Source of the DNA: Candidatus Sulfomarinibacteraceae bacterium
GTDB lineage: Bacteria > Acidobacteriota > Thermoanaerobaculia > Thermoanaerobaculales > Sulfomarinibacteraceae
Reading direction: 5' to 3'
Assembly (NCBI GenBank): GCA_963733915.1
Contig: CAVTEP010000003.1
Coordinates: 3,757-67,756, forward strand
Length of the DNA: 64,000 nt
Positions within the stretch are counted from its first letter, which is position 1; each line of letters starts with the position of its first letter. The notes under the pieces are model-generated. The model did not search any database, was not told where the DNA came from, and saw only the letters and a list, made by a program, of their open reading frames with translations. Both the position numbers and the translations under genes were made by a program. Positions 21,754 through 40,796 of the stretch are shown here, in pieces.

Positions 21754-21807
21754 ATTTTCAACGCTGGTGGCCCGCTACTGCGAATCAAGATCATGTAGGA
21801 TCACGCG

Positions 21808-24008: not shown

Positions 24009-24113
24009 GGTGTCAATCCCCCGCCTGGCTTCGACCGGAGACTGCCGGTCGTGGTAGGTTTTCGTTGACAATAATAGAGGTCATCTCGAGAGGATGACCG
24101 GATCCGGGGTTCC

Positions 24114-26492
24114 ATGCGCACAGCACGCCATTTCACCGCCATCGCGACAACCATCGCCCTCGTCGTGCTCGGCGCGCCGTCAGCCCTTCACTCGGCAGAC
24201 GACGCACCAACCGGTGTCGCGTTGATTCGGGTCAATCTGGTCGGCCCGCCACGCGATCTTGGGCTGCCAGTTCACGCCTTGCTCCGGGACTCACGCGGCA
24301 TCGACTATGCTTTGGTGCTTGCGCCGGTATCTGCCGCCAACGCGCTTGGAGCTGAGATCCTCGACCCGCAGCTGTCCGGCAGCTCCTACCTGGTTGCCCT
24401 TGAACGGCGACCAAACGCCCGCACCGATGCCCGCATGATGATGCCGGTCCTCCACGACGACGGTCGCCACATCGTCGTCCGGAACGCGCCGGGAAGGGCC
24501 GACGCGCTTGCGGAGCTCGGTTTCGACCTCGCCCTGTTCTCCACCGAAGCCTGGAAATTTGAAGCGCCGTTCGCGCCAGAAAGCGCGCCGGAAATCAGCT
24601 GGGACTCTCGAGTTGCAGACATTATCGCGGCCGTGACCGAGCCTTCAGTGTTTACTTACAGCGGCCAAATCAGCGGCGAAAGCCCTGTCATCGTCGCAGG
24701 GGATACCTACACGATCGTAACCCGCCACACGAGCTCTGGAACCCCGATCCAGAAGGCGACCCAGTTCGTCTACGAGTTCATGAGTCAGCTCGCTCTCGAT
24801 GTCTCGTTTCACCAGTGGAGCTCGGGCCGCAACGTGATCGGCGAAAAGCTGGGGGCCACGGACCCCGAGGAGATCGTGCTCATCACAGCTCACCTCGACG
24901 ACATGCCATCGGGCGGGGTCGCGCCCGGTGCCGACGACAACGGCAGCGGGTCGGTGGCGGTGATGATGGCGGCCGAGCTCTTCGACCCGTACTGGTTCGA
25001 AAAGACCGTCCGTTTCGTATTCTTCACCGGCGAGGAGCAAGGATTGCTCGGTGCCCAGGCCTATGCCGCCAAGGTCCAGGCGGACGGCGATAACATCGTT
25101 GCGGTCTACAACATGGACATGATCGGCTGGGACGCGGTGGACGGACCGACCCTTCGCATCCACACCCGACCCGGGAACAGCCTCGACCTCGCAATCGCCA
25201 ACACATTCACCGATGTGGTCTCCACCTACGGTCTTTCGGGCGTGCTGACCCCGATCATCGATCCTGACGGAATCTCCGCCAGCGATCATGCGGCTTTCTG
25301 GGCTCGGGGTTATCCAGGCGTGCTCGCCATCGAGGATGACCAGAGCGACTTCAACGCCTACTACCACACCGTCAACGACAAACGGGAGCACCTCAACATG
25401 GGGTATTTCACGAACTACGTGAAGGCCTCGCTCGGCACCGCCGCTCATCTCGCCATACCGACTATCGCGCCATGCCAACAGGCGATGGTCACGAGGTCTC
25501 TCGAGGTCGACAGCCATGCATCGGCTTCAACCTCGTCGAACCTGAACGGCATCCTCGAAAAAGGCGAACGCGCGATGATCACACCGGGATGGCGTTTCCC
25601 GGCGGGTTGCGCACCGTCGTTTGTCACGGGCCAGATAACGAATTTCGCGACACCGGCCGGGCTCATGGGATCGGTACCTGACGACGGGGCATCGTACGGC
25701 TTGATGTTCCCGGGAGAGGAGACCGACTGTTTCAGCGAAGGTGAAAATTGCTACGAGCTGTGGCTCAGTCCGATCGGCACCCGCCCCAGCGGCCACATCG
25801 ATCTCGTCGCAACCGAAGCCCTCAGCGTCAATCGGTCGGAGGATTGGCTGATTCACCTCGGCGGTAGCTTCTCCGATGTTCCGACCGATTACTGGGCCTA
25901 CGGTTTCGTGGAAAAGATCCTGCACCATGGAGTCACGGCGGGCTGCGCCACGTCGGCGTTCTGTCCGGGCCAACCGATATCGCGCTGGCAGATGGCGGTG
26001 TTCATTAGCAAATCGATGCTCACTGGCGTCGAGGCGCCGATCACAGGGACCGTACCCGGCAAGGGTGGTTACGATTGCTCCGAGGGCGGTATTTCGGTCT
26101 TTGACGACATCTCACCCGTCGACCCCGGATGCCGTTTTGTTCATTTCATCGCCGCCGAAGGGATTTCGGTGGGCTGTGCGTCGACGCTTTTCTGTCCGTA
26201 CGTGTCCGTCGACCGCTGGCAGATGGCGGTCTTTCTCGCCAAGGCCATGGTGGGCGACGGAACGATACCGAACAGCGGCACTGTTCCCGGAATGGGAGCC
26301 TACGATTGCCGGACCGGAGGGGTCAGCCTCTTCGGAGACATTCAACCCACGGATCCGGTCTGTCCGCACGTCCATTTCCTGGCCGCGGCCGAGGTGACCG
26401 CTGGATGTGGCGGCGGAAACTACTGTCCTGACGCATTGGTGACGCGGGCGCAGATGTCCGTGTTCCTGGTGAAGTCCTTCAGCCTGCCGTGA
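24114..26492 (+). CDS. secreted M28-family aminopeptidase with three C-terminal Cys-containing SLH-like repeats
   Basis: ORF 24114..26492; signal peptide; ITAHLDDMPSGGVAPGADDNGSGS, FFTGEEQGLLGAQAY; repeats FSDVPTDYWAYGFVEKILHHGVTAGC.., FDDISPVDPGCRFVHFIAAEGISVGC.., FGDIQPTDPVCPHVHFLAAAEVTAGC.. Confidence 0.8.
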   Translation: MRTARHFTAIATTIALVVLGAPSALHSADDAPTGVALIRVNLVGPPRDLGLPVHALLRDSRGIDYALVLAPVSAANALGAEILDPQLSGSSYLVALERRPNARTDARMMMPVLHDDGRHIVVRNAPGRADALAELGFDLALFSTEAWKFEAPFAPESAPEISWDSRVADIIAAVTEPSVFTYSGQISGESPVIVAGDTYTIVTRHTSSGTPIQKATQFVYEFMSQLALDVSFHQWSSGRNVIGEKLGATDPEEIVLITAHLDDMPSGGVAPGADDNGSGSVAVMMAAELFDPYWFEKTVRFVFFTGEEQGLLGAQAYAAKVQADGDNIVAVYNMDMIGWDAVDGPTLRIHTRPGNSLDLAIANTFTDVVSTYGLSGVLTPIIDPDGISASDHAAFWARGYPGVLAIEDDQSDFNAYYHTVNDKREHLNMGYFTNYVKASLGTAAHLAIPTIAPCQQAMVTRSLEVDSHASASTSSNLNGILEKGERAMITPGWRFPAGCAPSFVTGQITNFATPAGLMGSVPDDGASYGLMFPGEETDCFSEGENCYELWLSPIGTRPSGHIDLVATEALSVNRSEDWLIHLGGSFSDVPTDYWAYGFVEKILHHGVTAGCATSAFCPGQPISRWQMAVFISKSMLTGVEAPITGTVPGKGGYDCSEGGISVFDDISPVDPGCRFVHFIAAEGISVGCASTLFCPYVSVDRWQMAVFLAKAMVGDGTIPNSGTVPGMGAYDCRTGGVSLFGDIQPTDPVCPHVHFLAAAEVTAGCGGGNYCPDALVTRAQMSVFLVKSFSLP

Positions 26493-26533
26493 CCACTGTC
26501 AGATCGAGGACGCATCCAATCTCGCCGCCGCGT

Positions 26534-26669
26534 CAACCGTTTGAACGTTGCAACATTAGAACGTTAGAACGTTAGAACGTTCCTAATCTCCCCCAGGGTG
26601 TACATCGAGAATTGACTGGGGTGGATGGACGAAACGTTTTAACGTTGAACGTTCCAACGTGTAACGTCG
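26534..26669. repeat. tandem-unit hairpin element E8: AACGTT-type arms around ctcccccag...ctggggtgg core
   Basis: 26534-26583 caaccgtttgaacgttgcaacattagaacgttagaacgttagaacgttcc; right arm 26631-26669 gaaacgttttaacgttgaacgttccaacgtgtaacgtcg; ends 5 nt before the stop of the convergent gene. Confidence 0.85.
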
Positions 26670-26673
26670 TGTG

Positions 26674-27903
26674 TCATCCCGCGAGCGCTTCGACCGGCGT
26701 CAAGCGGGCGGCGCGGAGCGACGGGTAGAGGCCCGCGACCAGTCCGACGCTGACGGCGAAGACAATCGCGAGAATGACGGCGAAACCGGAGATCGGGAGA
26801 CCGGCCTCGAAGAACTGGCCGGCAAACGCGCACAGCACCACCGCAACCCCAAAGCCGATAACCGCGCCGATGATCGACAGAAACACCGCCTCGATCAGGA
26901 ACTGCACCAGGATGTCGCGATCTTCGGCACCGATGGCCTTGCGGAGCCCGATCTCGTAGAGGCGCTCGGCGAGCGAGATCTGCAATACCGAGAAGATGCC
27001 GACACCGCCGACCACGAGCGAGATCGCGGAAATCGCAAACAGGACGATAGTCCAGCCGCGGAGCTGCTCGTCGATCTGCTGCTCCGCTTCGACGATCTCC
27101 TGGGCGACGTTTTCGATCTCGAAATCCTCGACCCGGTTGTGCTGTCGCCAAAGCCGGTTTTTGAGGTGGGCGAACAACTGCGAGAGGTTGTCGGTGTTGG
27201 TGGCCTTGACCATCAACAACGGAACCCGCTCACCGCCACCGAAAAGACCCTGCATGGTGGTCAGGGGAATGGTGGCGCCCTCCATCTCGCGTTCGCTCCA
27301 CCCGTCGTTGATCATGTCGTTGCCGACCCGCTCGCCGATTCCGATGACCTCGAAGCGGTGGTCGCCGATGCGCACCCACTGCCCGACGGCGTCGTTGCCA
27401 CCGAAAAGGTCCTCGGCGAGGAAGTGGCCGATGACGACAACCCGGTTTCTCCGTGCAACGTCGAGATCGGAGATTTCGCGGCCTTTGGCAACTCGACGAT
27501 CGAAGACGGCTGCGTACTGAGTGGTGGTGCCGGTGATCCGCACCGACTGGCTGGAGTCGCCCCACGCCAGGACCTGTTGCGAGTACGAAACCGGAGCCGC
27601 GGATGAAATCTGTTCGCTCGACGCGACCAGCCCGGCCGCATCTTCGCGACGCAGTCCTTCCGACAAATGGGCTCGCTTGACGTCGAGGTTCGAGGTGGGT
27701 CTCTCGGTGCTCACGAAAAGCACGCCGCGCAGACCGAGCGAATCGATGCCGTTCCAGATCTCCACCTTGACCGCCTCGATGAGGCTGACCATGGTCACCA
27801 CCGCCATCGTCCCGAGGACAACGCCAAAGAGGGTCAACAACGAACGCATTTTGTGCGCCCAGATCTCGGTGACCGTCGTCCGCAGGGATTCGCCGATGAC
27901 CAT
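26674..27903 (-). CDS. ABC exporter permease (MacB-type periplasmic domain plus FtsX domain)
   Basis: ORF 26674..27903; N-terminal TM, large periplasmic domain, C-terminal FtsX TM bundle with LRKAIGA motif. Confidence 0.85.
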   Translation of the reverse strand: MVIGESLRTTVTEIWAHKMRSLLTLFGVVLGTMAVVTMVSLIEAVKVEIWNGIDSLGLRGVLFVSTERPTSNLDVKRAHLSEGLRREDAAGLVASSEQISSAAPVSYSQQVLAWGDSSQSVRITGTTTQYAAVFDRRVAKGREISDLDVARRNRVVVIGHFLAEDLFGGNDAVGQWVRIGDHRFEVIGIGERVGNDMINDGWSEREMEGATIPLTTMQGLFGGGERVPLLMVKATNTDNLSQLFAHLKNRLWRQHNRVEDFEIENVAQEIVEAEQQIDEQLRGWTIVLFAISAISLVVGGVGIFSVLQISLAERLYEIGLRKAIGAEDRDILVQFLIEAVFLSIIGAVIGFGVAVVLCAFAGQFFEAGLPISGFAVILAIVFAVSVGLVAGLYPSLRAARLTPVEALAG

Positions 27904-27909
27904 GAAACC

Positions 27910-29142
27910 TCACTCGTAGCGCAGCGCGACCACCGGGTCCAGGCGCGAGGCCCGGACCGCCGGATACATCCCGAAGAAGAAACCGACCACTGTGGCTGAC
28001 GCCACCGAGACGACGATCATCGAAGCCGTGATCGTCATCGGCATCTGCATGACGGTCATGATGCCGAAGGTGAAAACGATGCCGACCGCCAGCCCCGCGG
28101 CCCCGCCGAAGACGGTGACCACGATGGCCTCGATCAGGAACTGGACGAAGACCTGCCACCCGGTCGCACCGAGCGCCTTGCGGACACCGACCTCGCGCAT
28201 CCGCTCGGTAAACGAGGCAAGCATGATGTTGGTGATGACGATCCCGCCCACCAGCAGCGAGATCACGCCGCAGGCGAGAAAGGTGATGTTGTAGATCATG
28301 CCTTCACGATTCCCCTGCTCGATGCGTTCCTGGCGATCCCAGACCCCGAAATCCTCGATGCCGTGCCGCGACCGCAATAGCTGTTCGAGGGCATCTCGCG
28401 ATTCCTTGTGGACGTCGGGCGATCGGAGCCTGAGATTGAGCTCGTCGATTCGCTTCGCGCCCGGTTCCTGGTGTCGCTTCATGTAGGAGGTGATGGGCAC
28501 CACGATCAGCCGGTTGAGCCACTCGTGGGCGTTGTAGGTGTCCGACTCCTGCCAGTAGAACACCTTTTCCGCGGTCACGCCGACCACCGTGTAGGCCTTG
28601 CCGTCGATGTTCACCGCCTTGCCCACCGGATCGGCGGTGCCAAAGAGCTCGCGCGCGCGGGTCGAACCGAGCACCGCAACCGCCGCTGCGGTCTCCATGT
28701 CGTGGTCGGTGAGGTAGCGGCCCGAGCCCATCTCGAGCTCCCGCATCTCGAGGAACTCGGGCTCGATTGCGGTGACCTGGAATCGTTCCTCGGTAGCGCC
28801 GGCACGAACGGGGAGGGTGCCGGAGATCTCGGCCACCACGAGGTCGAAGCCGTCGATCGTGTCGCGGATTGCTTCCGCGTCGGCAAGCTTGAGACCGGTC
28901 CGCGCGCGCTGCCGGGCCGACATCTCGAGCTGGGCGGGCGGCTGGTTGTAGACCCCCATCAACCGGGTGCCGCCCGATTCGCGGAAGTACTGGTCCCGGC
29001 GTGCGTCCATGCTCGCGGTCATGCCGAGGGTGGCCACCACCGAGGCGACGCCCAGGATGACGCCGAGCGTCTGCAGCAGCGTGCGGCCGAGATGCTCGCG
29101 GATCTCGACGAAGCCCTCGCGGACGAACTGGATCGGATTCAT
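27910..29142 (-). CDS. ABC exporter permease (MacB/FtsX type), second copy
   Basis: ORF 27910..29142; same architecture, VRKALGA motif. Confidence 0.85.
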   Translation of the reverse strand: MNPIQFVREGFVEIREHLGRTLLQTLGVILGVASVVATLGMTASMDARRDQYFRESGGTRLMGVYNQPPAQLEMSARQRARTGLKLADAEAIRDTIDGFDLVVAEISGTLPVRAGATEERFQVTAIEPEFLEMRELEMGSGRYLTDHDMETAAAVAVLGSTRARELFGTADPVGKAVNIDGKAYTVVGVTAEKVFYWQESDTYNAHEWLNRLIVVPITSYMKRHQEPGAKRIDELNLRLRSPDVHKESRDALEQLLRSRHGIEDFGVWDRQERIEQGNREGMIYNITFLACGVISLLVGGIVITNIMLASFTERMREVGVRKALGATGWQVFVQFLIEAIVVTVFGGAAGLAVGIVFTFGIMTVMQMPMTITASMIVVSVASATVVGFFFGMYPAVRASRLDPVVALRYE

Positions 29143-29832
29143 GCCGCGGCCTGTTGTCCGTTCGGCAATATCAGGCCGTCGACGATCCGGATGGTCTCTC
29201 TGGCACGCGCCGCGATCGAGGGATCGTGGGTGACCATGATCAAGGTCTGGCCGCCGGCCCGCAGCTCGTCAAAGAGCTCGAGGATCTCGCCCCCGGTCTG
29301 CTGGTCGAGGTTGCCGGTCGGCTCGTCGGCCATGATCACCGAGGGGCGGCCGACGATGGCCCGGGCGATGGCGCCGCGCTGCCGCTGTCCGCCGGAGAGC
29401 TCGTTGGGACGGTGGCGGGCGCGGTCGGCAAGACCGACCTTGCCGAGCGCTTCGAGTGCCAGCTGGCGGCGCTCCACCCGGCCGACTCCGGCGTAGAGCA
29501 GCGGCAGCTCCACGTTGCGGAGCAGGCTGGCCCTGGGCAAGAGGTTGAAGTTCTGAAAGATGAACCCGATCTTCTGGTTGCGAAGACGGGCGAGCTTGCG
29601 CCGTGAGAAACCCGCCACCTCCTCGCCGTCGAGCAGGTACGAGCCCGAGGTCGGGGTGTCGAGCAAGCCCGAGGATGTGCATCAAGGTGGACTTGCCGGA
29701 CCCGGACGGGCCCATCACCGCCAGGTAGTCGCCGACGCCGACCTCGAGGTCGACGCCCCTGAGCGCCTCGACCGACAGATCGCCCTCACCGTAGACCTTT
29801 GTGATCCCCCGCAGGTGCATCAGTGTCTGCAT
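29139..29832 (-). pseudogene. MacB/LolD-type ABC ATPase with +1 frameshift right after Walker A (or assembly error)
   Basis: N-terminal part MQTLMHLRGITKVYG...GPSGSGKSTLMHILGL in frame of ORF 29269..29970, remainder LDTPTSGSYLLDG...LSGGQRQR...IMADEPTGNLD in ORF 29139..29666; one extra G in coding-strand run (plus strand ccc 29668-29670). Confidence 0.8.
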
Positions 29833-31067
29833 CAGGACCTCTCGTCCTGCGGTCGCGAAGGATCGGCGAGCGCCACCTTTTCGCCCTCTTCGATGCCTTC
29901 TACGATTTCGACCTCGGTCGTCGATGCGATGCCGGTCGCGACCCTGCGTTCCTCGAACCACCGCCGCCACTCCTGGCGTGGGTCATCGCGCCATTTCTCG
30001 GCCGAATCGGCCACGCCCTCGCCCTCCGCGCCCTCTCCTTCCTTTTCTGCGGACTTCTTGGGCAACGGGGTGTCACGGAGCACGTACACCATCTCTTCCT
30101 CACCGCGGATGAAAACCGACTCCACCGGGACCGAAAGAACCTGGGCGCGGATTTCACCCCGGATTTCGATGTTGGCGGTCATGCCGGTGCGCAGCTCGTG
30201 GCCGAGCTCGTCGAGGTCGATCTCGACGTCAAAGACCTTGACCTGGTCGTCGAGCCTGGCGGCCGGTGCGATACGACCGATGGTGCCGGCAAAGAGCACT
30301 CGTGGAAAGGCGTCGAGCGTGACGCGCGTCGCCTGGCCGAGGTGGATCTTGCCGATGTCGACCTCGTTGATGCCGGCCTTGACCAGCATGGTGCCGAGGT
30401 CGGCAACCGTTGCGATCACGGTTCCGGCGTTGAACGAGCCCGAACCGGTGACGGTCTCACCGAGCTCGACCGGCCGCTCGATGATCACCCCGCCCATCGG
30501 CGAGACGATGTTGACCACCTGGCGCGGGTTGTCGCCGACCGGGATCCCGGACGCCTCGACGAGACCGATATTGCCCCGTGCCTCGTCGAGCGCCTGCTGC
30601 GCCTGCCGATAGCGGGTCTCCGCCTCGCGATTGACTTCGACCGAGATCAGACCGCTCTCGAAGAGCTTGCGCTTGGCCTCGTAGTCCTGCCTGGCGTCCT
30701 CGAGATCGATCGCCGCCGACTGGCCCTGGTTGCGCACAGCGAGCAGGTCCTGAGCCTGGTTGACGTCCGGTTCGATGCGGGCGATGAGCTGGCCCTTCGT
30801 GACCACATCGCCGGCGCGAACCGGTAGGTCGACCACCCGTCCCGAGAGGTTGGACTTGATCTCCACCTTGACCTCGGGCTCGACCGTACCCACCTCGCGC
30901 ACGACCACCTGGACATCGTCGATGCTCGCCGCCAGGGTCGGGATCTCGGGGCCCTTCTCATCCTCGCCGTTGCCGTTGCCCCTGGTTTTTGCCGCAAAGG
31001 CCACGGCGGCGGCTGCAATCACAACCACCGCGACGATCACAAACCATTTTTTCCTGCTCCGGGCCAT
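29832..31067 (-). CDS. HlyD/MacA-type periplasmic adaptor (membrane fusion protein)
   Basis: ORF 29832..31067; N-terminal TM, coiled-coil hairpin, beta-barrel; TGATG overlap with the ATPase gene. Confidence 0.85.
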   Translation of the reverse strand: MARSRKKWFVIVAVVVIAAAAVAFAAKTRGNGNGEDEKGPEIPTLAASIDDVQVVVREVGTVEPEVKVEIKSNLSGRVVDLPVRAGDVVTKGQLIARIEPDVNQAQDLLAVRNQGQSAAIDLEDARQDYEAKRKLFESGLISVEVNREAETRYRQAQQALDEARGNIGLVEASGIPVGDNPRQVVNIVSPMGGVIIERPVELGETVTGSGSFNAGTVIATVADLGTMLVKAGINEVDIGKIHLGQATRVTLDAFPRVLFAGTIGRIAPAARLDDQVKVFDVEIDLDELGHELRTGMTANIEIRGEIRAQVLSVPVESVFIRGEEEMVYVLRDTPLPKKSAEKEGEGAEGEGVADSAEKWRDDPRQEWRRWFEERRVATGIASTTEVEIVEGIEEGEKVALADPSRPQDERS

Positions 31068-31143
31068 GGACCCTCCCCTCGAAACTTCAACGACTCGTCT
31101 CGCTCTGGATTACGCATTTGCGGCGAAAAATGTTCGCTCTGGT

Positions 31144-31189
31144 CAAATTTCGGCCGGGCTGAGGCGGCCGACAGCCCGGCCGAAATTTG
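31144..31189. repeat. perfect 18-nt inverted repeat with 10-nt spacer in divergent promoter region
   Basis: caaatttcggccgggctg aggcggccga cagcccggccgaaatttg between the exporter operon and the acyl-CoA dehydrogenase gene. Confidence 0.7.
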
Positions 31190-31236
31190 AAGCGGGGGGA
31201 ATGTAGAATACGGTCCGGAGAAACCGAGGAGGTGTC

Positions 31237-32463
31237 ATGCACGAGTTGCTGAACAAGGAGAACATCGATTATTTGGAGCGGGCGCGCGAGGTGGCCGAGA
31301 AATACGTGCGGCCCCGCGCGGCCGAGCTTGACCGTACCGGCGAGTACGGCTGGGACATCCTCGAAGCCCTCAAGTCCTACGGCCTCACCGGCGTCTGGAT
31401 TCCGAAGGAGTACGGCGGCCAGGATGCCGGCGTGCTCAATCTGTGTCTGATCGTCGAACAACTGTCGCGCGCCTGTGGTGGGGTCGGCGTCGCCTTCGCC
31501 GTCAACGCCCTCGGCTCCTTTCCCATCATTCTCGGCGGGACCGAGGAGCAGAAGCGAAAGTACCTGCCGGGAATCGCCTCCGGCGACAGCCTGATCGCCT
31601 TCGGTTTGTCGGAAAAGGCATCCGGCTCGGACGCGGGCAGCCTCCGCACCACCGCAATCCGCGACGGTGACGAGTTCGTGCTCAACGGTCACAAGAAGTG
31701 GAACACCAACGGCGGCGTAGCCTCGGTATTTACCGTTTACGCCCTCACCGAGCCCGACAAAGGGATGCGCGGGATCTCCCCCTTCATCCTCGAGCGCGAC
31801 ACCCCCGGGTTCACCATCGGCAAGCGCGAGGACACCATGGGCATCCGCACGGTGCCGGTGGTCGAGCTCGATTTCGAAAACTGCAGGGTGCCGGCCTCAC
31901 AGCTGCTCGGCGACCGCGAGGGCTCCGGCTTCAAAAACGCCATGATGACCCTCGACCGAGCCCGGCCCGGGGTCGCAGCGCAGGCGCTCGGCCTCGCCCA
32001 GGGCGCATTCGAGTGGGCGTTGCGCTATACCTCCGAGCGGCGCCAGTTCGGCCAGACGGTGATGTCACACCAGGCGGTGCAGTTCATGCTCGCCGACATG
32101 GCGACCCAGATCGAAGCCGCCCGCCAGCTCGTCTACGCCGGGGCCAGGATCATCGACTCCGGTGCCAAGAACGTCAACAAGATCGCCGCCATGGGCAAGG
32201 TCTTCGCCACCGACACCGCGATGAAGGTCACGACCGACGCGGTCCAGCTCTTCGGCGGCTACGGCTACTGCAGCGACTACCCGATCGAGAAGTACATGCG
32301 GGACGCCAAGATTACCCAGATCTACGAGGGCACGAACCAGGTTCAGCGGCTGGTCATCGGCCGCGCGCTGACCCGTGAGCTCAAGGAGCTGACCGGCCAC
32401 CTCGACGTCACCGTCGAGCACTTCCCGGATTACGATCCGAACGACGTGAGAAGTTCGGATTAG
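31237..32463 (+). CDS. acyl-CoA dehydrogenase
   Basis: ORF 31237..32463; FGLSEKASGSDA, IYEGTNQVQRLVIGRAL. Confidence 0.9.
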   Translation: MHELLNKENIDYLERAREVAEKYVRPRAAELDRTGEYGWDILEALKSYGLTGVWIPKEYGGQDAGVLNLCLIVEQLSRACGGVGVAFAVNALGSFPIILGGTEEQKRKYLPGIASGDSLIAFGLSEKASGSDAGSLRTTAIRDGDEFVLNGHKKWNTNGGVASVFTVYALTEPDKGMRGISPFILERDTPGFTIGKREDTMGIRTVPVVELDFENCRVPASQLLGDREGSGFKNAMMTLDRARPGVAAQALGLAQGAFEWALRYTSERRQFGQTVMSHQAVQFMLADMATQIEAARQLVYAGARIIDSGAKNVNKIAAMGKVFATDTAMKVTTDAVQLFGGYGYCSDYPIEKYMRDAKITQIYEGTNQVQRLVIGRALTRELKELTGHLDVTVEHFPDYDPNDVRSSD

Positions 32464-32646
32464 AATAGGAATTAGGAATGCCCCACCCGTTAGAAGGCGT
32501 GAGGGGAGCGTAATTCTCAATCCCGATTCACCGCCCTTCCTCCGTTGGGAGGGCGGGTGGAAAAATCCAAAATTGAAATTGAGAACTGAGAATTCGATGC
32601 AATGGGTGGGCGGGATTCCTAATTCCTAATTCCTAATGCGAATTCG
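32463..32646. repeat. nested tandem-unit element E9 (outer GGAATTAGG/CCTAATTCC arms, inner AATTCTCA-type arms, two C-box/G-box pairs)
   Basis: outer arm 32463-32480, C-box ccccaccc 32481-32488, inner C-box 32530-32543, loop gtt, inner G-box gggagggcgggtgg 32547-32560, outer G-box gggtgggcggg 32604-32614, outer arm attcctaattcctaattcctaatgc 32615-32639; starts in the TAG stop 32461-32463. Confidence 0.85.
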
Positions 32647-32649
32647 ATG

Positions 32650-33291
32650 TCAGCCTTCGTCGAGCGACCGGTGGTACTCCCGTTCCCAGGTGTTCCACCA
32701 CTCCTTTTCGATGCCGCCGCAGGTTTCGGCAAAGGCCGAACAGGCGATGCAACCGTCGCCGCGCACCATGTCGGGATCATCTCTGGGGGGAAACCTCTGC
32801 GTGAGCCGCTCACCGAGGTCGCGGGCCGCCTCCTCGTCGGCGGTCGGCGGCCGGCTCTCGAGCTGCGAGATGCCGCCCCGGACCAGACGCTGCTCCGCCT
32901 CGGGCAGGAGCACGCTGTCCTCCTTGTCGACGTGCTCCCAGAGATGGCGGGCCAGACGCCGCGCCGTCGCAGCGGAGTCCTCCGGCGACCCGGCGGCCAG
33001 CTCGAGCTCGCCGACCATGGCCGCAGCCTCGACGTGTTCCGCCGCAATCACTATCAGCGGACCGCGATCCGCGGGCACCTCGGCGTGCTCGACGAGGGCC
33101 GGGAAGAGAACCTGCTCCTCTCGCTCGTGGTGAAAGCCGCCGACATATACCCGCAGAAAACGAACAAAATCTGCGGCGTCGGCTTCCGTGGTTCCACCAC
33201 CCAGCGCCACTTCGGCAAAGCGGATCAACGATCCGGCCACCCGGTCGACGAGTCGGTGTTCTCGACCAAGATCATCGATGAGCCGCATCAA
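32650..33291 (-). CDS. hemerythrin (HHE cation-binding) domain protein with Cys-rich C-terminus
   Basis: ORF 32650..33291; GGFHHEREEQVLFPAL, WEHVDKEDSVLLP, C-terminal GDGCIACSAFAETCGG. Confidence 0.7.
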   Translation of the reverse strand: MMRLIDDLGREHRLVDRVAGSLIRFAEVALGGGTTEADAADFVRFLRVYVGGFHHEREEQVLFPALVEHAEVPADRGPLIVIAAEHVEAAAMVGELELAAGSPEDSAATARRLARHLWEHVDKEDSVLLPEAEQRLVRGGISQLESRPPTADEEAARDLGERLTQRFPPRDDPDMVRGDGCIACSAFAETCGGIEKEWWNTWEREYHRSLDEG

Positions 33292-35004
33292 TCGACAGCC
33301 GGCCGCACGACCCCGGCAGCGCCCGGACCGCGCGGGTCCTGCGCCGCCTGCACCTCACCACCGACCTGACCCCTCACCGAGTCGACCTCGCCAAGCTGAC
33401 GCACGACCTCGAGCTCGTGGCCGCGCCGCTCGAGCGCCATGGCGGTTTCGGGCGAAAGCGCGTACGGCTCGGCGTACAGCCGGTCGGGCATCCACTGGTG
33501 ATGAATCCTGGCGCGATCGACCGCCGCCTGCAGCTCGTCACCATCGACGATGAGATTCAACAGCACCTGCGCGGTGGAGGTCGGGATGCGCGATCCACCG
33601 GGCGATCCGACCACGATCACCTGGGTGCCGCGCCAGGCCACGGTCGGCGTCATCGAGGACAGCATGCGCTTGCCCGGACCGACCTCGTTGGCCTCGCCCT
33701 GGATCAGGCCGTAGTAGTTGGGTAGCCCGGGTGCGACCGCGAAGTCGTCCATCTCGTTGTTGAGGAGGAACCCGGCGCCGGGGACCAACAACCCGCAGCC
33801 AAAGCTGCCGTTGAGGGTGGTCGTGAGCGCGACCGCGTTGCCCTGGCCGTCGATGACCGACAGGTGGGTCGTGTCGTGCGGTTCCTTGAGTTGATCTCGC
33901 GACCACGGCCGCACCTGCTCCGAGTCGGCTGCCTTGCCAAGGCGGATCTCGGCCGCGCGAAGGTCGAGCCAGCTTCCGTCAAGCAGCTGGAGCGCGCTCG
34001 CCTCGCTGGAGCGCGGATCGCCGAGCAGCACCCGATCGGCGTACGCGCGGCGCCACACCTCCGCCAGCAGATGGTATCGGTCAGCGCCGAAACGGGGGTA
34101 TCCGGGCCAGTCGAGGCGCTCGAGCAGGCCGCAGGTCTCGCCGAGGATGATCCCTCCCGACAGACGGCAGCGGCATCGACGCCACCTGCCAGCCAAAGGC
34201 CTCGAACCGCACCGGTTGCCGCCACACCACGCGATAGGCGGAAAGGTCGGCGGCCCGAAGCACACCACCATTGAGCCGGGCGGCCATCTCGACGGCCGCG
34301 GCTACCGGCCCTTCGGATATCGCCGCCACACCTCTCGCGGCATAGGCTTCGAGGGTCGCCGCCAGCACGGGCAATTTCAACACAGTGCCCGCCGCGGGCG
34401 GACGGCCGCCGGGCAGCCATACGGCTGCGGTCTCCGGAAACCGGTCGAGCAGACCCGCGTTTTCGGCCAGGCTCGACTCCAGCCGTCGGGTGACCACGAA
34501 TCCGTCACGCGCGAGGCGGATGGCAGGGGCCACCACCTCGGGCCAGGGCAGGCGCCCGTGGGCGCGGTGGAGCTCGAACAGGCCGGCGGGCGAACCCGGA
34601 ACGCCGGCTGCCAGCGGACCGACAAGCGACGCCAGCGGTCGGATTTCGCCGCGCTCGTCGAGAAACATGTCGCGGGTCGCCGCCGCGGGCGCCGTCTCGC
34701 GGAAATCCAGGGCGAAGATCTCGTCGCCAAAGCGCCCGACCGCGAAGCCGCCGCCGCCCAGGTTCCCGGCCTGCGGGTGAACCACGGCGAGGGCGAGCGC
34801 GGTCGCCACCGCCGCATCGGCTGCGTTGCCGCCAGCGCGCAACACCTCGAGGCCGGCCTCGGTGGCAGCGGGGGCGGCGCTGGATACCGCTCCCCCCGTG
34901 CCCCGCACGGCGGCCGGATCGGCCGCACCGGCCGGCGCCTCTGGGAACAGGGTCGCCAGCGCGACCAACATGAGAAGCACGAGAGCCTTCCGAATAGCCA
35001 TCAT
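33288..35004 (-). pseudogene. ggt: gamma-glutamyltransferase with +1 frameshift at the PPSSGG-equivalent motif (or assembly error)
   Basis: N-terminal half in ORF 34081..35004 (signal peptide, AGNLGGGGF), C-terminal half in ORF 33288..34271 (SGGIILGETCGLLE, DTTHLSVIDGQGNAVALTTTLN, LLNNEMDDF); frames join if one G is removed around 34156-34161. Confidence 0.85.
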
Positions 35005-35077
35005 CGAAAGAGTCTACCCGAGATACCCGGGAACTCCTCAGCCGGATATGCGTACTGATCTGGCAGGAGGTACGACG

Positions 35078-35530
35078 ATGACCACCGCTTCACACCCGAC
35101 CACCACGTCTTCCGACGCGCTCGCAGGCGGAATTCGCAGCGCTCTCAGCCGCCTTGAGGCCCTCGACAACGAGACGGCAGGCTACCTCAAGACCCTTGCC
35201 TTCATCCTGAACCGCGTGGCCGGAGCCGACAGCCACACTTGCGCGGAGGAGGTCGAGAGAATGGAGCAAATCCTAGTCGACCACGCCTCCTTGTCGCTTC
35301 CCGAGGCGGTGCTGGCCGTCGAGATCGCCCGCCATTGCGGCCGCGTGGCCGACTGCGGATGCGCTTACGAGGCGAGCCGCAGCCTTCGCTCGCGTCTGAA
35401 TGACAACGAAAAGCACCGTGTCCGCAGTTTCCTCGAGTCCATCGCAGAGGCCGATGGCAGGGTGCGGCCGTCGGAGGTAGCTGAGATTCGGCAAATCGCG
35501 GCCGAGATCGGGTTTCCCTCTCATCGTTGA
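35078..35530 (+). CDS. TerB-like (tellurite-resistance TerB / DjlA-N type) domain protein
   Basis: frame of ORF 34826..35530, ATG 35078 behind AGGAGG; two helical halves ending in AEADGRVRPSEVAEIRQIAAEIG. Confidence 0.5.
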   Translation: MTTASHPTTTSSDALAGGIRSALSRLEALDNETAGYLKTLAFILNRVAGADSHTCAEEVERMEQILVDHASLSLPEAVLAVEIARHCGRVADCGCAYEASRSLRSRLNDNEKHRVRSFLESIAEADGRVRPSEVAEIRQIAAEIGFPSHR

Positions 35531-35617
35531 GATATGAGTTCTTGCCCCCCGCCCCGCAGGATTTCAGGTTCGTGCTCGGGTGGGCGGGGGAGGAACTCAA
35601 AACCAAGAACTCAAACC
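35529..35617. repeat. tandem-unit hairpin element E10 (GAGTTCTTG / CAAGAACTC arms, C-box, G-box)
   Basis: 35529-35544 gagatatgagttcttg (overlaps TGA 35528-35530); ccccccgccccg 35545-35556; gggtgggcggggg 35578-35590; aggaactcaaaaccaagaactcaaacc 35591-35617. Confidence 0.8.
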
Positions 35618-35687
35618 TACGCGATGCCAGTGACCAGGATCAGCTATCATTCTCCGTGCGCCGCGTCTCGTGGTGCGCGGAGGATCG

Positions 35688-36648
35688 ATGACCTGGAACT
35701 ACTCGAAAAAAACCACCGATCTCTTCATGGATGCGGTGCAGGGCAGGCCCGGCACCCACCTGGGAGAGATCGAGGACGCCGACGGATTCGGCGAGCACGG
35801 GTCGATCGCGTGCGGCGACGCCCTCCGTTTCACCTTCAAGGTCGAATCGCCACCCCACGGACCCGAAGCAGGACGCATCACCGAGGCCCGCTACCTCACC
35901 TTCGGCTGCACCTCGGCCATCGCCGCATCCGAGGCCCTGTGCGCGATCATCGAGGAGGGCGACTACACCCCGATCGAGGCCCTGAAGATCACCAACCAGG
36001 ACATCGTCAACTATCTCGAGGGACTGCCGCAGGCAGAAGATCCACTGCTCGGTGATGGGCGCCGAGGCGCTCGAGGCGGCGGTCTTCAACTGGGCCCAGA
36101 AGCGCGGCGTCGACCTCTCCGAGCTCGGCATCGACATCCGCCGCGACGAGCAGGAGGAGGGGCGGCTGGTCTGCACCTGCTTCGGTCTCACCGAGCCCTA
36201 CATCGAGCGCAAGATCAAGGAGCTCGAGCTGACATCGATCGCGGAGATCACCAACGCCATCAAGGCCGGCGGCGCCTGCATGTCCTGCCACCACACGCCC
36301 GGCGGCCTCCAGGACCTGCTCAACGAGGTCTGGGGCAAGCAGCCGACCGCGTTCAAGGAATTGCCGGTGCTGCCGTTGGCCCGCGAACACAAGGTGCAGC
36401 CGCCGCGGGAGATGTCGCCCTTCAAGTTCGCCAAGCAGGTGGAGCACGTCCTCGACGAGCACGCCCGGCCTCACCTCGCCCGCGACGGAGGGAATATCGA
36501 GATCGTCGACATCAAGGACCGTGTGGTCTACGTCCAACTCAAGGGCGCGTGTTCCGACTGCATGGGATCGACCAACACGGTCAAGATGCTGGTGGAGCAG
36601 GCGCTCAAGGACCACGTGGACGAACAGATCCGGGTCATCCAGGTCTAG
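35688..36648 (+). pseudogene. nifU: full-length NifU (IscU-like N domain, BFD-like 2Fe-2S domain, Nfu C domain) with +1 frameshift (or assembly error)
   Basis: N part in ORF 35670..36773 (GSIACGDALRF, FGCTSAIAASEAL, GLPQ), remainder in ORF 36052..36648; own reading of that frame gives QKIHCSVMGAEALEAAV; removing one G at 36032-36033 joins them; CTCFGLTE..GGACMSCH, GACSDCMGS. Confidence 0.85.
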
Positions 36649-36653
36649 TCCTT

Positions 36654-36690
36654 GTTTCCCGCGGTCGCCCGCCGGGCGACCGCGGGAAAC
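36654..36690 (+). promoter_or_regulatory. 37-nt perfect palindrome between nifU and nifS (attenuator or processing hairpin candidate)
   Basis: gtttcccgcggtcgcccg c cgggcgaccgcgggaaac; no U-run after it; AGGAGG and GTG start of nifS follow. Confidence 0.6.
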
Positions 36691-36718
36691 TAGGTGATGA
36701 GGATCAGCAGGAGGCTTC

Positions 36719-37960
36719 GTGCCGGTCATCTACCTCGACAACAACGCGACGACGCAGGTGGCGCCCGAGGTAGTCGAGGCCATGATGCCGTTCTTCACGG
36801 GTGAGTACTTCAACCCGAGCTCGATGTACGAGGCCGCGCGCGGCCCTGCGGATGCGATTGCGAGCGCACGGCGCACGATCGCCCGGCTCCTCGGTCACTC
36901 CCGCCCATCCGAGATCCTCTTCACCTCCTGCGCCACCGAGAGCAACAACACCGCCCTCTTCGGCACCATCGCCGCCAACCCCGACCGGCGGCACCTCATC
37001 ACCACCGCGGTCGAGCACCCGGCCGTCTTCGAGGTCTGCAAGGACCTGAAGCGCCGTGGCTTCGAGGTCGACTTCATCCCCGTCGACACCCAGGGCCGTC
37101 TCGACACGGCCGAGTTCGTGCGCGCGCTGCGGCCCGACACCCTGCTGGTGTCGGTGATGCACGCCAACAACGAGACCGGCGTCATCTTCCCGGTCGAGGA
37201 GCTGTCGCGGATCACCAAGGAGACCGACCCCTCGATCGTCTTCCACACCGACGCCACCCAAACCGTGGGCAAGCTCCCCATCGACCTCCGGGACAGCTTC
37301 AAGCACGTCGACATGCTCTCGTTTTCGGGCCACAAGCTGCACGCCCCCAAGGGCATCGGCGCCCTCTACGTCCGCCGCGGCACGCCCTGCCGGCCGTTTC
37401 TGCTCGGCGGCCACCAGGAGGAGGGGCGCCGCGCCGGGACCGAAAACGTCGCCTTTATCGTCGGCCTCGCGCGCGCCCTCGAGCTGGCCATGGAGCGCCA
37501 TGACGACGACGTGCCGCGAATTACCGCGATGCGCGATCGCCTCCAGCGCGAGCTCGTCGCGCGAATCCCCTACCTCGAGGTCAACGGCGGCGAGGCGCCG
37601 CGGCTCGACAACACCCTCAACATCGCCTGCCATTTCATCGAAGGGGAAGGCATCCTCTACCAACTCTCGGAGCACGGTATCTGCGCCTCCTCGGGCTCGG
37701 CCTGCACCTCGGGCTCGCTCGAGCCGTCGCACGTATTGCGCGCCATGAAAGTCCCCTTCACCGCCGTCCACGGCTCGGTCCGCTTCAGCCTCAGCCGCTA
37801 CACCACCGAAGCCGAGATCGACACCGTCATCGAGGTCTTCCCCGAGATCGTGGCCAGCCTGCGCCGGCTCTCACCCTACTGGGACGCGGCCACCAACGCG
37901 CCCCGCCCCGAGGGCCTCGAGATGCTCGAGCAGACCGAGATGCCGCAAGCGCACGGATAG
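36719..37960 (+). CDS. nifS: cysteine desulfurase
   Basis: ORF 36719..37960 (GTG start); IYLDNNATT, SFSGHKLHAPKGIGALYVR, SSGSACTSG. Confidence 0.9.
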   Translation: MPVIYLDNNATTQVAPEVVEAMMPFFTGEYFNPSSMYEAARGPADAIASARRTIARLLGHSRPSEILFTSCATESNNTALFGTIAANPDRRHLITTAVEHPAVFEVCKDLKRRGFEVDFIPVDTQGRLDTAEFVRALRPDTLLVSVMHANNETGVIFPVEELSRITKETDPSIVFHTDATQTVGKLPIDLRDSFKHVDMLSFSGHKLHAPKGIGALYVRRGTPCRPFLLGGHQEEGRRAGTENVAFIVGLARALELAMERHDDDVPRITAMRDRLQRELVARIPYLEVNGGEAPRLDNTLNIACHFIEGEGILYQLSEHGICASSGSACTSGSLEPSHVLRAMKVPFTAVHGSVRFSLSRYTTEAEIDTVIEVFPEIVASLRRLSPYWDAATNAPRPEGLEMLEQTEMPQAHG

Positions 37961-38063
37961 CCTTCATATCTCACCAACTTTCTGCTGCAGCCGCCGGCGA
38001 CGTCGCCCTGTGATAGTTTGTCGCCGTCGCTCGCCGAAACGATGTCGGGCGTCAGGAGGATCC

Positions 38064-40133: not shown

Positions 40134-40337
40134 TTACGGCGGCTACGATCGCAGTCGCTCGCTGCACCACCGACTCCGGAATCGACATCGCCTTCGAGGT
40201 CTTTTCTGTAATCGGTGAGACCTCGGAGGCCGTCACCCTTCTCGAATGCCGCCATCACCGCCCTCTACCCCGAGGTCCTCGATCAGACGGCAACGCCGCA
40301 AGCGCGCGCCGGGCGCGCGCTTACGGGATTCATTGAA

Positions 40338-40796
40338 TCAAAAGAACGCCGAGAAGTGAAAGTTGGCGATCAGCCACTTGCCGTTGAGCTTGACCAGCGT
40401 GACACTTACCCGCCCGCTCTGGGCAATCGCCTGGCCGTCTTTTGTGAAGACCGTGAAATCGAAATAGCCGTTGCCGACGGCGGTGTCGCCGTTGTAAATC
40501 CGAAAGGTCGAGTGGTGCTGCTCGTAATGGGCCATCGCATACGCCAATGTTCCCTCGAAAAACTTTTGCCAGCCCGCCTTCCCGGTGATCACCAGGGGTG
40601 ACTCCACGCCGGTAAAGGCCTCGAAATCATCGGTGAGGTACGTGTAGTAGGTATCAAAATCGCGCGCGTTGAAGGCGTCGATCGTCGTTCTGAGCACATT
40701 TTCGACGCTCTCCATGTCTCCGGCAACCGCGCCCGGGACCATGACCATGAATGTCAGGACAGTTACCACTCCCAGAACCAGGACTCGCTGTTTCAT
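40338..40796 (-). CDS. secreted SnoaL-like / NTF2-fold (DUF4440-like) protein
   Basis: ORF 40338..40979 trimmed to MKQRVLVLGVVTVL signal peptide; ...VTLVKLNGKWLIANFHFS typical NTF2-like C-terminus. Confidence 0.55.
   Translation of the reverse strand: MKQRVLVLGVVTVLTFMVMVPGAVAGDMESVENVLRTTIDAFNARDFDTYYTYLTDDFEAFTGVESPLVITGKAGWQKFFEGTLAYAMAHYEQHHSTFRIYNGDTAVGNGYFDFTVFTKDGQAIAQSGRVSVTLVKLNGKWLIANFHFSAFF

Follow-up and report, generated by a model that had tools for sequence, protein, structure and literature searches.

The 186-base spacer that separates the two converging genes of an acyl-CoA dehydrogenase and a hemerythrin-domain protein is filled by a long hairpin which wraps a second hairpin. 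Judged from its sequence, this element, termed E9, has two layers and belongs to a lineage-wide class of intergenic palindromes found in uncultured Holophagae/Thermoanaerobaculia-like Acidobacteriota. The class is large and fast-changing and consists of gene-end hairpins with short-tandem-repeat stems, a kind already seen in Xanthomonas. We suggest, with a probability of about 45%, that E9 is a gene-end hairpin which would act like a bidirectional terminator or RNA-processing site and which would be remodelled by slippage and template switching.

Organization and predicted fold of E9

The features of the junction are listed below, together with the support for each. Coordinates refer to the window, that is, the whole stretch of 64,000 nucleotides that was analysed, and L numbers denote sequences from relatives.

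31237–32463, + strand: acyl-CoA dehydrogenase gene (Pfam Acyl-CoA_dh_N/M/1)
32450–32480, + strand: outer left arm (inverted repeats, MFE pairing; homologous arm in L320, L083, L084, L085 and L164)
32463–32480, + strand: gaataggaattaggaatg, within the outer left arm (sequence)
32481–32488, + strand: outer C-rich box ccccaccc, CCCCACCC (inverted repeat with 32604–32610; L320 alignment)
32489–32509, + strand: spacer gttagaaggcgtgaggggagc between outer box and inner arm (homologous spacer in L320 and L166)
32510–32529, + strand: decayed inner left arm gtaattctcaatcccgattc, TTCTCAA/TTTTGAA type (two inverted repeats)
32530–32560, + strand: inner core hairpin with C-box ACCGCCCTTCCTCC, loop GTT and G-box GGGAGGGCGGGTGG (inverted repeat, MFE, G-box consensus)
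32561–32599, + strand: inner right arm aaaaatccaaaattgaaattgagaactgagaattcgatg (counterpart right arms in the alignments to L082, L166 and L320)
32600–32639, + strand: outer right half-module, composed of caat, G-box GGGTGGGCGGG, (ATTCCTA)3.3 and atgc (TRF, G-box match, L320)
32640–32649, + strand: second copy of gaattcgatg, abutting the hemerythrin stop codon
32650–33291, − strand: hemerythrin-domain gene converging on E9 (Pfam Hemerythrin, E 1.9e-16)

The outer left arm is of the type (AATTNNN)n AGGAATT and passes from degenerate to perfect heptamers (gaagttc ggattag aatagg aattagg aatg). The final five codons of the acyl-CoA dehydrogenase gene and its TAG stop (32461–32463) fall within the start of this arm. 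The encoded protein has 408 amino acids, compared to 403 in close relatives, and the ancestral TGA, which L320 and L082 keep, has been lost through a 1-nt insertion. In the alignment the outer C-box CCCCACCC is 6 nt shorter than its counterpart CCGCCCGTCCACCC in L320, and the spacer that follows has homologues in L320 and L166 which likewise sit upstream of an inner-type arm. The inner layer comprises taattctcaat (32511–32521), accgcccttcctcc (32530–32543), the loop gtt, gggagggcgggtgg (32547–32560) and attgagaactgagaatt (32578–32594); intact counterparts of its left arm are (TTCTCAATTTTGAA)2 in L082 and (TTCTTAA)4 in L320, and its right arm ends in the first copy of the 10-nt repeat (32590–32599). 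The outer G-box gggtgggcggg (32604–32614) is followed by attcctaattcctaattcctaatgc (32615–32639), in which TRF finds an array of period 7 with 3.3 copies and 100% matches (32615–32637). G-box and arm of this half-module are identical in L320. The strings quoted for both layers by an initial annotation, as well as the two copies of gaattcgatg, are all present at exactly the positions it gave.

The hemerythrin stop codon occupies 32650–32652, and the synteny of the two genes is found in L081–L083, L164–L178 and L320. GC3-based gene calling gave the wrong strand for the hemerythrin gene, and where the context of a gene was of importance it was therefore taken from Pfam and synteny.

The proposal that E9 is one hairpin nested inside another is borne out by RNAfold on both strands. 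The region 32450–32649 folds into two coaxial hairpins on the plus and the minus strand (z −5.8 and about −4.8, respectively), and RNAfold of 32455–32655 yields a single nested stem-in-stem. On the plus strand its energy is −84.9 kcal/mol compared to −58.9 ± 4.5 for shuffled sequences (z −5.8, 0 of 200 as good) and on the minus strand −74.9 (z −4.75); with DNA parameters z is −6.1. The composite of L320 also folds nested. In a repeat search the outer arms 32466–32482 and 32612–32628 are complementary to 94%, and since the arms are tandem heptamers they pair in two further registers. For the inner layer the search returned the pairs 32531–32540/32547–32556 (90%), 32514–32528/32571–32585 (80%) and 32512–32519/32587–32594 (100%). 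The C-box/G-box stems pair as a GC-rich stem–loop. The heptamer motif ATTCCTAATTCC has 10 matches with at most one mismatch, whereas 0.13 are expected; the 10-nt direct repeat taken alone is marginal (P ~0.05 in a first-order Markov model of the region).

The junction in related genomes

Simpler, un-nested states had been sought in relatives, and they do occur at this very junction: the inner type alone in L082 and the outer type alone in L083, L084, L164 and L085. Other composites are present in L166, L086 and L087, relatives also carry other unit families or half-elements, and L002 (80% identity) has a plain GC hairpin. L320, an independent metagenome assembly which is collinear and 93% identical over 16 kb, contains a nested composite as in E9. 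Because the nesting recurs in this assembly, the composite is real and inherited, and misassembly, which the initial annotation had named as a caveat, does not account for it.

It had been proposed that the nesting and the bracketing repeats are what repeated insertion into pre-existing copies would produce. The two layers are indeed separable, as the relatives demonstrate, but insertion as the mechanism was not supported. In particular, the 10-nt repeat is not an insertion trace, as L320 has the outer G-box and arm and no such repeat: its first repeat site reads gaattcagtg and its second ttcggcgaagccgctg, and at the position homologous to the second copy it has ggcgaagccgctg, a conserved small hairpin also present in L084–L086. 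The repeat therefore arose locally and later, after the composite had formed. For the same reason we dropped the idea that the repeat is a target-site duplication left by the insertion of the outer right module, an idea prompted by the end of the L082 element ('gagaattcgcg' followed by the stop codon).

In both the window and L320 the inner layer is more decayed than the outer one. A well-kept outer layer around a decaying inner one argues against the inner hairpin having been inserted into the outer, and outer modules added or maintained around an older core would fit better. We read the nesting as inherited, with a well-kept pair of outer arms and boxes around an older, decaying inner hairpin. 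The string 'cgttagaa' at 32488–32495 had been read, from the alignment with L081, as the remnant of an AACGTT arm into which the outer left module was inserted. This reading is weakened because L320 has 'cgctagggagg' there, and an AACGTT-type remnant at this position is a possibility.

A class of gene-end hairpins and its possible roles

At least 15 intergenic palindromes of the E9 design are found in the window. Each has an AT-rich arm built from tandem 7–8-nt units, then a C-rich box, a loop and a G-rich box, and finally the complementary arm. They start 0–46 nt past stop codons in convergent as well as tandem gene contexts; for elements other than E9, which overlaps the stop codon, the distance is 4–46 nt. 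Terminators of the canonical hairpin-plus-T-run kind show no enrichment in bases 1–20000 of the window (15 compared to 14.6 expected) and a modest one only in bases 20001–40000 (18 compared to 10.8 ± 2.8). In 154 kb (the window and 11 relatives) there are 83 short-period arrays; 17 of 38 adjacent array pairs are reverse-complementary compared to 3.5% of random pairs, and the C-rich box lies 5′ and the G-rich box 3′ in all 20 informative pairs. The boxes read CCCNCCC/GGGNGGG, with GGGWGGGCGGG as G-box consensus, and in the window elements the G-runs sit in these separate boxes, not in the units. Unit families detected by TRF in the window include AGGAATT, TTCTCAA, AACGTTNN, GAGTTTT and GGCTATGG. 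Copies of a family have unit type and box style in common, with unrelated loops and differing unit numbers, and the families AACGTT, GAGTTTT, AGGAATT and GGCTATG recur at many loci in several genomes. Half-modules, that is, a G-box with its arm, occur singly, in tandem or with mismatched partners (L086, L087, L166 and 6312–6470 of the window, where the arms are non-complementary and GAGTTTT stands opposite AATTCCN). Similar hairpins are also contained in phage contigs.

Two kinds of change are directly visible in these elements. Unit numbers in the arms change: an 8-nt unit indel distinguishes the window from L320 at 26538–26667, and contigs with identical proteins differ in unit number (L181 and L184, L192 and L194, L189 and L190). 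In addition, arms or entire elements are replaced at a fixed site. The spacer 23893–24008 after a Cys/Met-metabolism gene is AACGTT-type in the window and GAGTTTT-type in L320 despite 93% overall identity, L082 and L085 differ by whole-family replacement with the same left boundary, and in L083 nearly every orthologous 3′ spacer contains an other-family hairpin or a plain GC hairpin.

We suggest that E9 is the 3′-end hairpin common to the acyl-CoA dehydrogenase and hemerythrin genes and that it would act on transcripts from both sides, by termination, 3′-end protection or RNase III-type processing; its design is that of a bidirectional intrinsic terminator in which heptamer arrays stand in for the A and T runs. 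On the DNA level, polymerase slippage in the arms would account for the changes in unit number, and arms or entire elements are replaced at fixed sites. Local slippage alone would not explain unit families which recur across loci and genomes. A third process may be involved, in which similar segments are copied onto one another in short patches or by template switching; the complementary arms, the half-modules, the mismatched arms and the window-specific 10-nt repeat would follow from it.

A function on the RNA level is our inference. A scan of 32300–32800 gave no terminator site, the stem being followed by AT-rich heptamers and no U/T tract, and no consensus promoter was found in the E9 region. 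Rfam had no match at gathering score in the whole window, which contains no rRNA, and a tRNA scan found nothing. Selection on the sense-strand RNA was considered and rejected, as G·U asymmetry and two-strand energies at 10 elements showed no consistent bias. At co-directional junctions the sense strand has no consistent energy advantage, and thus nothing specific to RNA over DNA emerges. In L320 the inner left arm has been homogenised and the right arm did not follow, and in L082 the arms within the element are not mirror-ordered; together with the non-complementary arms described above this points to loose selection for pairing.

Alternatively, the units could be non-autonomous elements of MITE or REPIN type which target hairpins or gene ends with an enzyme encoded elsewhere, E9 being a turnover intermediate. 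The recurrent families, the whole-family swaps at one site between 93%-identical genomes and between L082 and L085, the free-standing and mismatched half-modules, and the contigs often broken at related elements would all suit mobile DNA, and the arms of E9 are inverted repeats as are the termini of MITEs. Nevertheless, we regard this as doubtful. Fresh MITE copies would not have unrelated loops and differing unit numbers, and near-identical full-length copies with a parent IS transposase were not found in the window. The only candidate target-site duplication, the 10-nt repeat, brackets half a layer only and is absent from L320, and no flanking repeats were seen around the elements of L082–L085. 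A Pfam scan of 44 window ORFs revealed housekeeping functions and no mobility enzyme, neither transposase nor reverse transcriptase, and there is no gene for a RAYT (Y1 transposase) within the 64 kb. In addition, no element sequence has the 20–40-nt palindrome with GTAG or CGTC head of REPs.

It is unlikely that E9 acts as duplex or extruded DNA, either through its phased AT-rich heptamers and its G- and C-rich boxes as a site for a nucleoid or replication protein or as a G-quadruplex, i-motif or cruciform marking gene ends. The G-box consensus is conserved even where C-box pairing is imperfect, the two strands fold symmetrically without favouring the sense strand, and G4 and i-motif structures have been observed in vitro for the GGGAATC repeats of Xanthomonas (PMC4692102). 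However, most boxes have only three G-runs, the 7–8-bp period does not fit the helical repeat, no candidate binding protein is known, and the many unrelated arm unit sequences argue against a single sequence-specific one.

We give similarly little credence to the view that the arm-plus-box half-modules are transposase-free mobile non-coding DNA. The G- and C-rich boxes would then be priming or homology handles at stalled forks, and by box-primed template switching the tandem-repeat arms would be copied from hairpin to hairpin genome-wide and into phages. Exchanged or mismatched arms, half-modules in tandem and a wrap-around nesting as in E9 would result, and an Avd/IVS four-helix-bundle protein from similar hairpins might be a partner.

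Genes for the four-helix-bundle protein of 23S rRNA intervening sequences (IVS) sit in hairpins of E9-like build. The window contains two:

13927–14289: four-helix-bundle gene within element 13866–14362, arms (GGCTATGG)n/(CATAGCCC)n
60140–60493: four-helix-bundle gene within element 59918–60590, arms 59918–59954/60554–60590

E9 might be the gene-less remnant of an IVS-like selfish element, a tandem-repeat-stem hairpin around a four-helix-bundle gene. Classical IVSs are ORF-bearing stem–loops cut by RNase III (PMC4990558), homologues with 57–82% identity in three other gene neighbourhoods also have such arms, as do both genes of the window, and GGCTATG-armed elements at 20766 and 44692–44852 have no ORF. 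Yet we hold this to be quite improbable, as no AATTNNN-armed element was seen with a four-helix-bundle ORF, the ORF-bearing elements have no C/G boxes beside their arms, and tblastn detects no gene trace in the loops of E9, L085 and L087. E9 itself has no ORF, and a tblastn search with 120 members of the PF05635/TIGR02436 family finds nothing there. Finally, an assembly artefact joining two strain variants is effectively refuted by the sequence comparison: the region is repeat-rich and relatives have alternative junction alleles, but the sequences common to the layers have only 10–12 nt, too short to mislead an assembler, the independent L320 assembly matches the nesting, and a further composite recurs unchanged in five independent samples (L166–L170).

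In many bacterial genomes heptamers are the most frequent of the long simple repeats, and the natural series of them in this lineage is unusually rich. One junction can be traced through five or more unit families as well as through half-elements, composites and a plain hairpin, and with a genome pair at 93% identity slow slippage can be told apart from wholesale replacement. If the elements mark the ends of transcripts, they should be considered when gene ends are annotated and terminators predicted in high-GC uncultured phyla; if they spread by template switching, non-coding DNA would have a new way to move. In addition, the elements matter for assembly and binning because contigs often break at them.

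Comparison with known systems

E9 resembles bidirectional intrinsic terminators in its GC stem–loop with complementary AT-rich flanks, located between converging genes right after the stop codons. In contrast to these, it has no A/T homopolymer tract and far longer stems (35–45 bp and the inner hairpin). REP, BIME and REPIN sequences are extragenic palindromes at gene 3′ ends, which occur as singles, inverted pairs and clusters; roles in termination and mRNA stability have been proposed, and they are targeted by other elements. REPs are 20–40-nt palindromes which share a conserved GTAG/CGTC head, occur in near-identical copies and are accompanied by a cognate RAYT gene. The E9 units differ from REPs by tandem-repeat arms, the missing GTAG/CGTC head, variable loops and the lack of a RAYT in the window.

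The cyanobacterial STRR heptamer arrays, which Mazel et al. in 1990 and Elhai et al. in 2008 are said to have described, reportedly harbour embedded small dispersed repeats: small hairpin elements lie inside intergenic tandem heptamers, and nested copies have reportedly been found. We know of no transposase for these embedded elements. The arrays are said to be direct, with a hairpin interrupting them, and not to form complementary arms, and host phylum and consensus sequences differ from those of E9.

The elements 13866–14362 and 59918–60590 match the architecture of the 23S rRNA IVS, in which RNase III cleaves a long terminal-inverted-repeat stem that surrounds a four-helix-bundle (S23p) ORF (PMC4990558). 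Unlike the IVS, the window elements do not lie in rRNA and have tandem-repeat stems, and E9 itself is without ORF. The PeSL cassettes of T4-type phages are intergenic stem–loops associated with an exchange of modules among close relatives (Arbiol et al. 2010, PMC2839356); a PeSL combines a promoter with a stem–loop and reportedly has no tandem-repeat stems, which distinguishes it from E9.

In Xanthomonas, GGGAATC repeats form 70–75 inverted pairs per genome, are stem–loop capable and follow the upstream ORF at a mean distance of 28 nt (Rehm et al. 2015, PMC4692102). In X. campestris and X. axonopodis the junctions are usually kept between related species while length and sequence of the heptamers have changed (PMC4692102). 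The E9 class differs in that the G4-capable unit GGGAATC/GGGANTN is not used, that many, mostly AT-rich, unit families replace the single G-rich one, that separate C- and G-rich boxes lie between the arms, and that it includes nested elements and half-modules and is linked to four-helix-bundle genes. Nevertheless, the inverted GGGAATC heptamer pairs are the closest published case to E9. Both occur in high-GC genomes as intergenic tandem heptamers in inverted pairs, and E9 likewise has 7-nt units in at least two intergenic tandem copies (its left arm matching in three registers), two convergent nearby arrays capable of forming a stem–loop, and a position just downstream of the upstream ORF, the stop codon of which it overlaps.

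Nested hairpin at the acyl-CoA dehydrogenase/hemerythrin junction

The 186-nt spacer between the acyl-CoA dehydrogenase and hemerythrin genes is filled entirely by the E9 structure, in which outer heptamer arms with their C-rich and G-rich boxes enclose an inner set. The strings quoted in the initial annotation all lie where it had placed them, and Pfam (genes) and a repeat search (arms and boxes) gave the following layout.

31237–32463, forward strand: acyl-CoA dehydrogenase gene
32650–33291, reverse strand: hemerythrin gene
32466–32482 / 32612–32628: outer arms, 94% complementary; two shifted registers also pair
32482–32491 / 32601–32610: outer boxes
32514–32528 / 32571–32585 and 32512–32519 / 32587–32594: inner arms
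32531–32540 / 32547–32556: inner boxes

Folding of positions 32455–32655 yields one stem within a stem for the RNA of the forward strand (−84.9 kcal/mol, z −5.8), for that of the reverse strand (−74.9 kcal/mol, z −4.75) and with DNA parameters (−44.4 kcal/mol, z −6.1), and the observation of a nested hairpin is confirmed. The strand-specific folding energies give no hint that the sense RNA alone matters.

A search with the hemerythrin protein led to the relative locus L320, which aligns collinearly with 16.1 kb of the window (93% nucleotide identity). As this independent relative contains the same composite (242 nt, folding likewise, z −6.5), the nesting is real and inherited and not an assembly error. 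L320 also keeps the ancestral stop of the acyl-CoA dehydrogenase ("gac tga"); in the window this TGA is removed by a 1-nt insertion, the reading frame extends five codons into the left arm of E9 and ends at TAG, and the protein has 408 aa versus 403 in all close relatives (32445–32463).

The initial annotation explained the nesting, together with the bracketing 10-nt repeat gaattcgatg (present at 32590–32599 and 32640–32649), by repeated insertion into pre-existing copies. This holds in so far as each layer is a separable unit and un-nested states occur in relatives, but the bracketing repeat is no insertion scar and the layer order is likely reversed. In L320 the repeat is absent: the first site reads gaattcagtg and the second ttcggcgaagccgctg, a small conserved hairpin also found beside the hemerythrin stop in the relative loci L084–L086. 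Since L320 has the composite without the repeat, the repeat is younger than the composite, a target-site duplication is ruled out, and the repeat arose either by copying of a short stretch or by coincidence; as an isolated event it is only marginally unusual in so repeat-rich a stretch (P ~0.05).

Between the window and L320 the outer layer is nearly identical, but decay of the inner layer has taken a separate course in the two: the window has a degenerate inner left arm, and L320 a degenerate inner G side together with an inner left arm homogenised to (TTCTTAA)4, a change that the right arm did not share. A fresh inner insertion is at odds with this pattern, which fits an older inner hairpin inside a younger or better-maintained outer pair. 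Outward addition is plausible because half-modules of one box and one arm exist independently (L086, L087, L166 and window 6312–6470). Judged from the sequences, the order of events was probably the opposite of an insertion of the inner into the outer layer.

The junction in relatives

The closest genomes are uncultured Acidobacteriota, namely a Holophagae MAG with 88% protein identity and Thermoanaerobaculia MAGs with 73–80%. Among the 163 fetched loci, arrays adjacent to boxes are confined to close relatives. Simpler, un-nested states are indeed present at the junction, with either layer alone.

State of the junction in relative loci (% aa in brackets)
L081 (95%): AACGTT-type arms; core still shares "ccgattcacc...gggcgggt" with the window inner core
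L082 (92%): inner type alone
L083, L084, L164/165 (90–92%): outer type alone
L085 (90%): outer type, 130-nt loop
L086: left arms absent, right half-module present twice
L087: inner type, 230-nt loop, two right modules
L166–L170 (identical in five samples): AACGTT array, followed by a complete inner type and an unmatched G-box with (AAATCCG)n
L171–L178: AAGAGTT family
L002 (80%): plain GC hairpin

L082 and L085 are sister lineages in the gene tree with flanks 93–95% identical; they have their left boundary, "tgacgccgYtcgga", and their heptamer phase in common, yet their units differ, with CTC/TTG in one and AGG/CGG in the other. Both consist of (AATTNNN)n, which shows that inner and outer arms are of related types. 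In the Holophagae MAG (L001, 11213–11960) the acyl-CoA dehydrogenase gene is followed by a 750-nt spacer, the hemerythrin gene being absent; this spacer is full of arrays, including ~23 copies of TCTCACCT, all inside (GAATTCG)n ... (TTCCGAA)n arms ~530 nt apart.

A class of gene-end hairpins and its turnover

Period-7 and period-8 arrays are numerous in the AT-richer intergenic islands of the window (64% GC overall; Tandem Repeats Finder), and the window and 11 close relatives hold 83 arrays in 154 kb, where neighbouring array pairs are reverse-complementary in 17 of 38 cases compared with 3.5% of random pairs. In the common design a tandem-repeat arm is followed, from 5′ to 3′, by a C-rich box (CCCNCCC...), then by a loop and a G-rich box (GGGWGGGCGGG), and finally by the complementary tandem-repeat arm; in all 20 informative pairs the C-rich box lies on the 5′ side and its G-rich counterpart on the 3′ side. 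Elements start 0–46 nt past stop codons, in convergent and co-directional gene contexts alike. Complementary array pairs, fixed box order and the position after stop codons place E9 in a larger class, the arm unit of which varies between sites.

Arm units at window sites
GAGTTTT: 6312, 8402
AATTCCN: 6395, E9
GGCTATGG: 13866, 20766, 44692
AACGTTNN: 18894, 23893, 26538, 48040, 59551, 60694
GGGGAAAA: 19620, 59770
AAGAGTC: 62371

At 6312–6470 the design is broken, a GAGTTTT arm standing opposite an AATTCCN arm with a normal box hairpin between them, and lone half-elements of G-box and arm exist (e.g. 60620). One element in L083 (16750–17060) has a reversed layout with the boxes outside and (CACCAAG)n / (CTTGGTG)n arms inside, the C-rich side still being 5′.

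Changes of different size are found between close relatives. In comparison with L320, one 8-nt unit differs at 26538–26667 (slippage), the plain hairpin at 36650–36700 shows a few substitutions, and the element at 23893–24008 has AACGTT-type arms in the window but GAGTTTT-type arms in L320 (reverse complement 1215–1440) at an overall identity of 93%; here both arms are replaced and the C-box/G-box core is similar. Contigs encoding identical proteins differ by 2–4 arm units, and L083 has a hairpin in almost every orthologous 3′ spacer, yet of another family or of the plain type. Across these alignments element position is conserved and sequence is in rapid turnover. Slippage alone accounts neither for the recurrence of unit families nor for the complementary change of both arms.

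Larger differences were also seen. A ~5-kb segment (21746–26676; Cys/Met-metabolism PLP enzyme, M28 peptidase with SLH domain) carrying two AACGTT-type elements occurs in both the window and L320 but not in L083. Within 44692–45118, the reverse-strand ORF at 44855–45118 resembles only the first 87 aa of an alpha/beta hydrolase that continues in L083, and a (AGGCTATG)n / (CATAGCCC)n element stands where its 3′ part would be, suggesting a deletion associated with the element. An insertion of ~830 nt that L320 and L083 lack (40124–40960), encoding a 213-aa reverse-strand ORF with a signal-peptide-like start, has no association with a repeat hairpin.

Two elements enclose genes.

13927–14289, reverse strand: TIGR02436 four-helix-bundle gene (23S rRNA IVS protein / Avd family), full-length, one in-frame stop
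60140–60493, forward strand: second four-helix-bundle gene (TIGR02436, E 1.8e-16)

The first is flanked by (GGCTATGG)n / (CATAGCCC)n arms at 13866–13905 and 14332–14362 (43-nt stems, 86% complementary), the second by 37-nt inverted arms of ~12-nt tandem units (59918–60590), with additional arrays and a G-box half-module to either side (59551–59830 and 60620–60716). Homologues (57–82% identity) occur between tandem-repeat arms in three further gene neighbourhoods with polymorphic unit numbers; of these, the L179/L180 set is the orthologue of the window locus. Most homologues are on very short contigs. Classical IVSs are ORF-bearing stem–loops cut by RNase III and suspected of mobility (PMC4990558). 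Because neither a four-helix-bundle ORF nor a trace of one was found in AATTNNN-type elements, E9 is linked to these elements by architecture only.

Similar arrays occur in IMG/VR viral contigs.

Contig stretches in the IMG/VR scan
(AGGAATT)x3: 66
(GAGTTTT)x3: 45
(GATAGTA)x3, control of equal composition: 11
(CGTTAGAA)x2.5: 1
(GGCTATGG)x3: 1

In 978 kb of fetched viral loci there are 429 arrays of period 7 or 8. In some, such as L224 and L302, nearly every spacer has a heptamer-armed hairpin of its own unit, placed between the stop codon and the next ribosome-binding site; in L212 a C-box adjoins AGGAATT arms, and L211 has direct G-box-plus-arm modules. These four and L204 are phage-classified contigs of 45–64% GC with heptamer-armed hairpins, each of its own unit, in that same position. 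The 5′ arms of these hairpins are often Shine-Dalgarno-like (AGGA, AGGT) and the partner arms resemble anti-Shine-Dalgarno sequences.

Mode of change and known systems

We tentatively suggest, with a probability of about 0.45, that E9 is a gene-end hairpin whose role resembles that of a terminator or processing site and whose sequence has been reshaped by slippage and template switching. If such hairpins have a structural role at gene ends, their position should be conserved, as is seen. No consensus terminator or promoter was found in 32300–32800; in bases 1–20000 canonical terminators show no enrichment, and in bases 20001–40000 only a modest one (18 versus 10.8 ± 2.8 expected).

The main rival, a trans-mobilised MITE/REPIN-like element, appears less likely to us (about 0.25). 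Copying between loci predicts that unit families recur at many sites, as they do here. However, REPs have a GTAG/CGTC head and MITEs occur as near-identical copies, neither of which is seen here, and 44 ORFs scanned in the window, all housekeeping, include no transposase, RAYT, reverse transcriptase or integrase. Unlike CRISPR, the elements have no spacers, and Rfam and tRNA scans gave no match.

Cyanobacterial STRRs are heptamer direct repeats upstream of start codons, and Elhai et al. reportedly described in 2008 small hairpin elements within heptamer arrays, with nested copies. The Beggiatoaceae TAACTGA heptamers are likewise direct repeats upstream of start codons (PMC4679880). The closest published description is that of the Xanthomonas heptamer arrays (Rehm et al. 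2015; PMC4692102): ~185 GGGAATC-type arrays, on average 28 nt past the upstream ORF, of which 70–75 form convergent, stem–loop-capable pairs; the junctions are mostly shared by two species, in which the arrays differ in length and sequence. E9 resembles this system in its heptamer arrays, inverted pairing and position, and differs in the many unit families, the separate C- and G-boxes, the nesting and the half-modules. E9 is of a kind already known but poorly understood, from which it differs in form.
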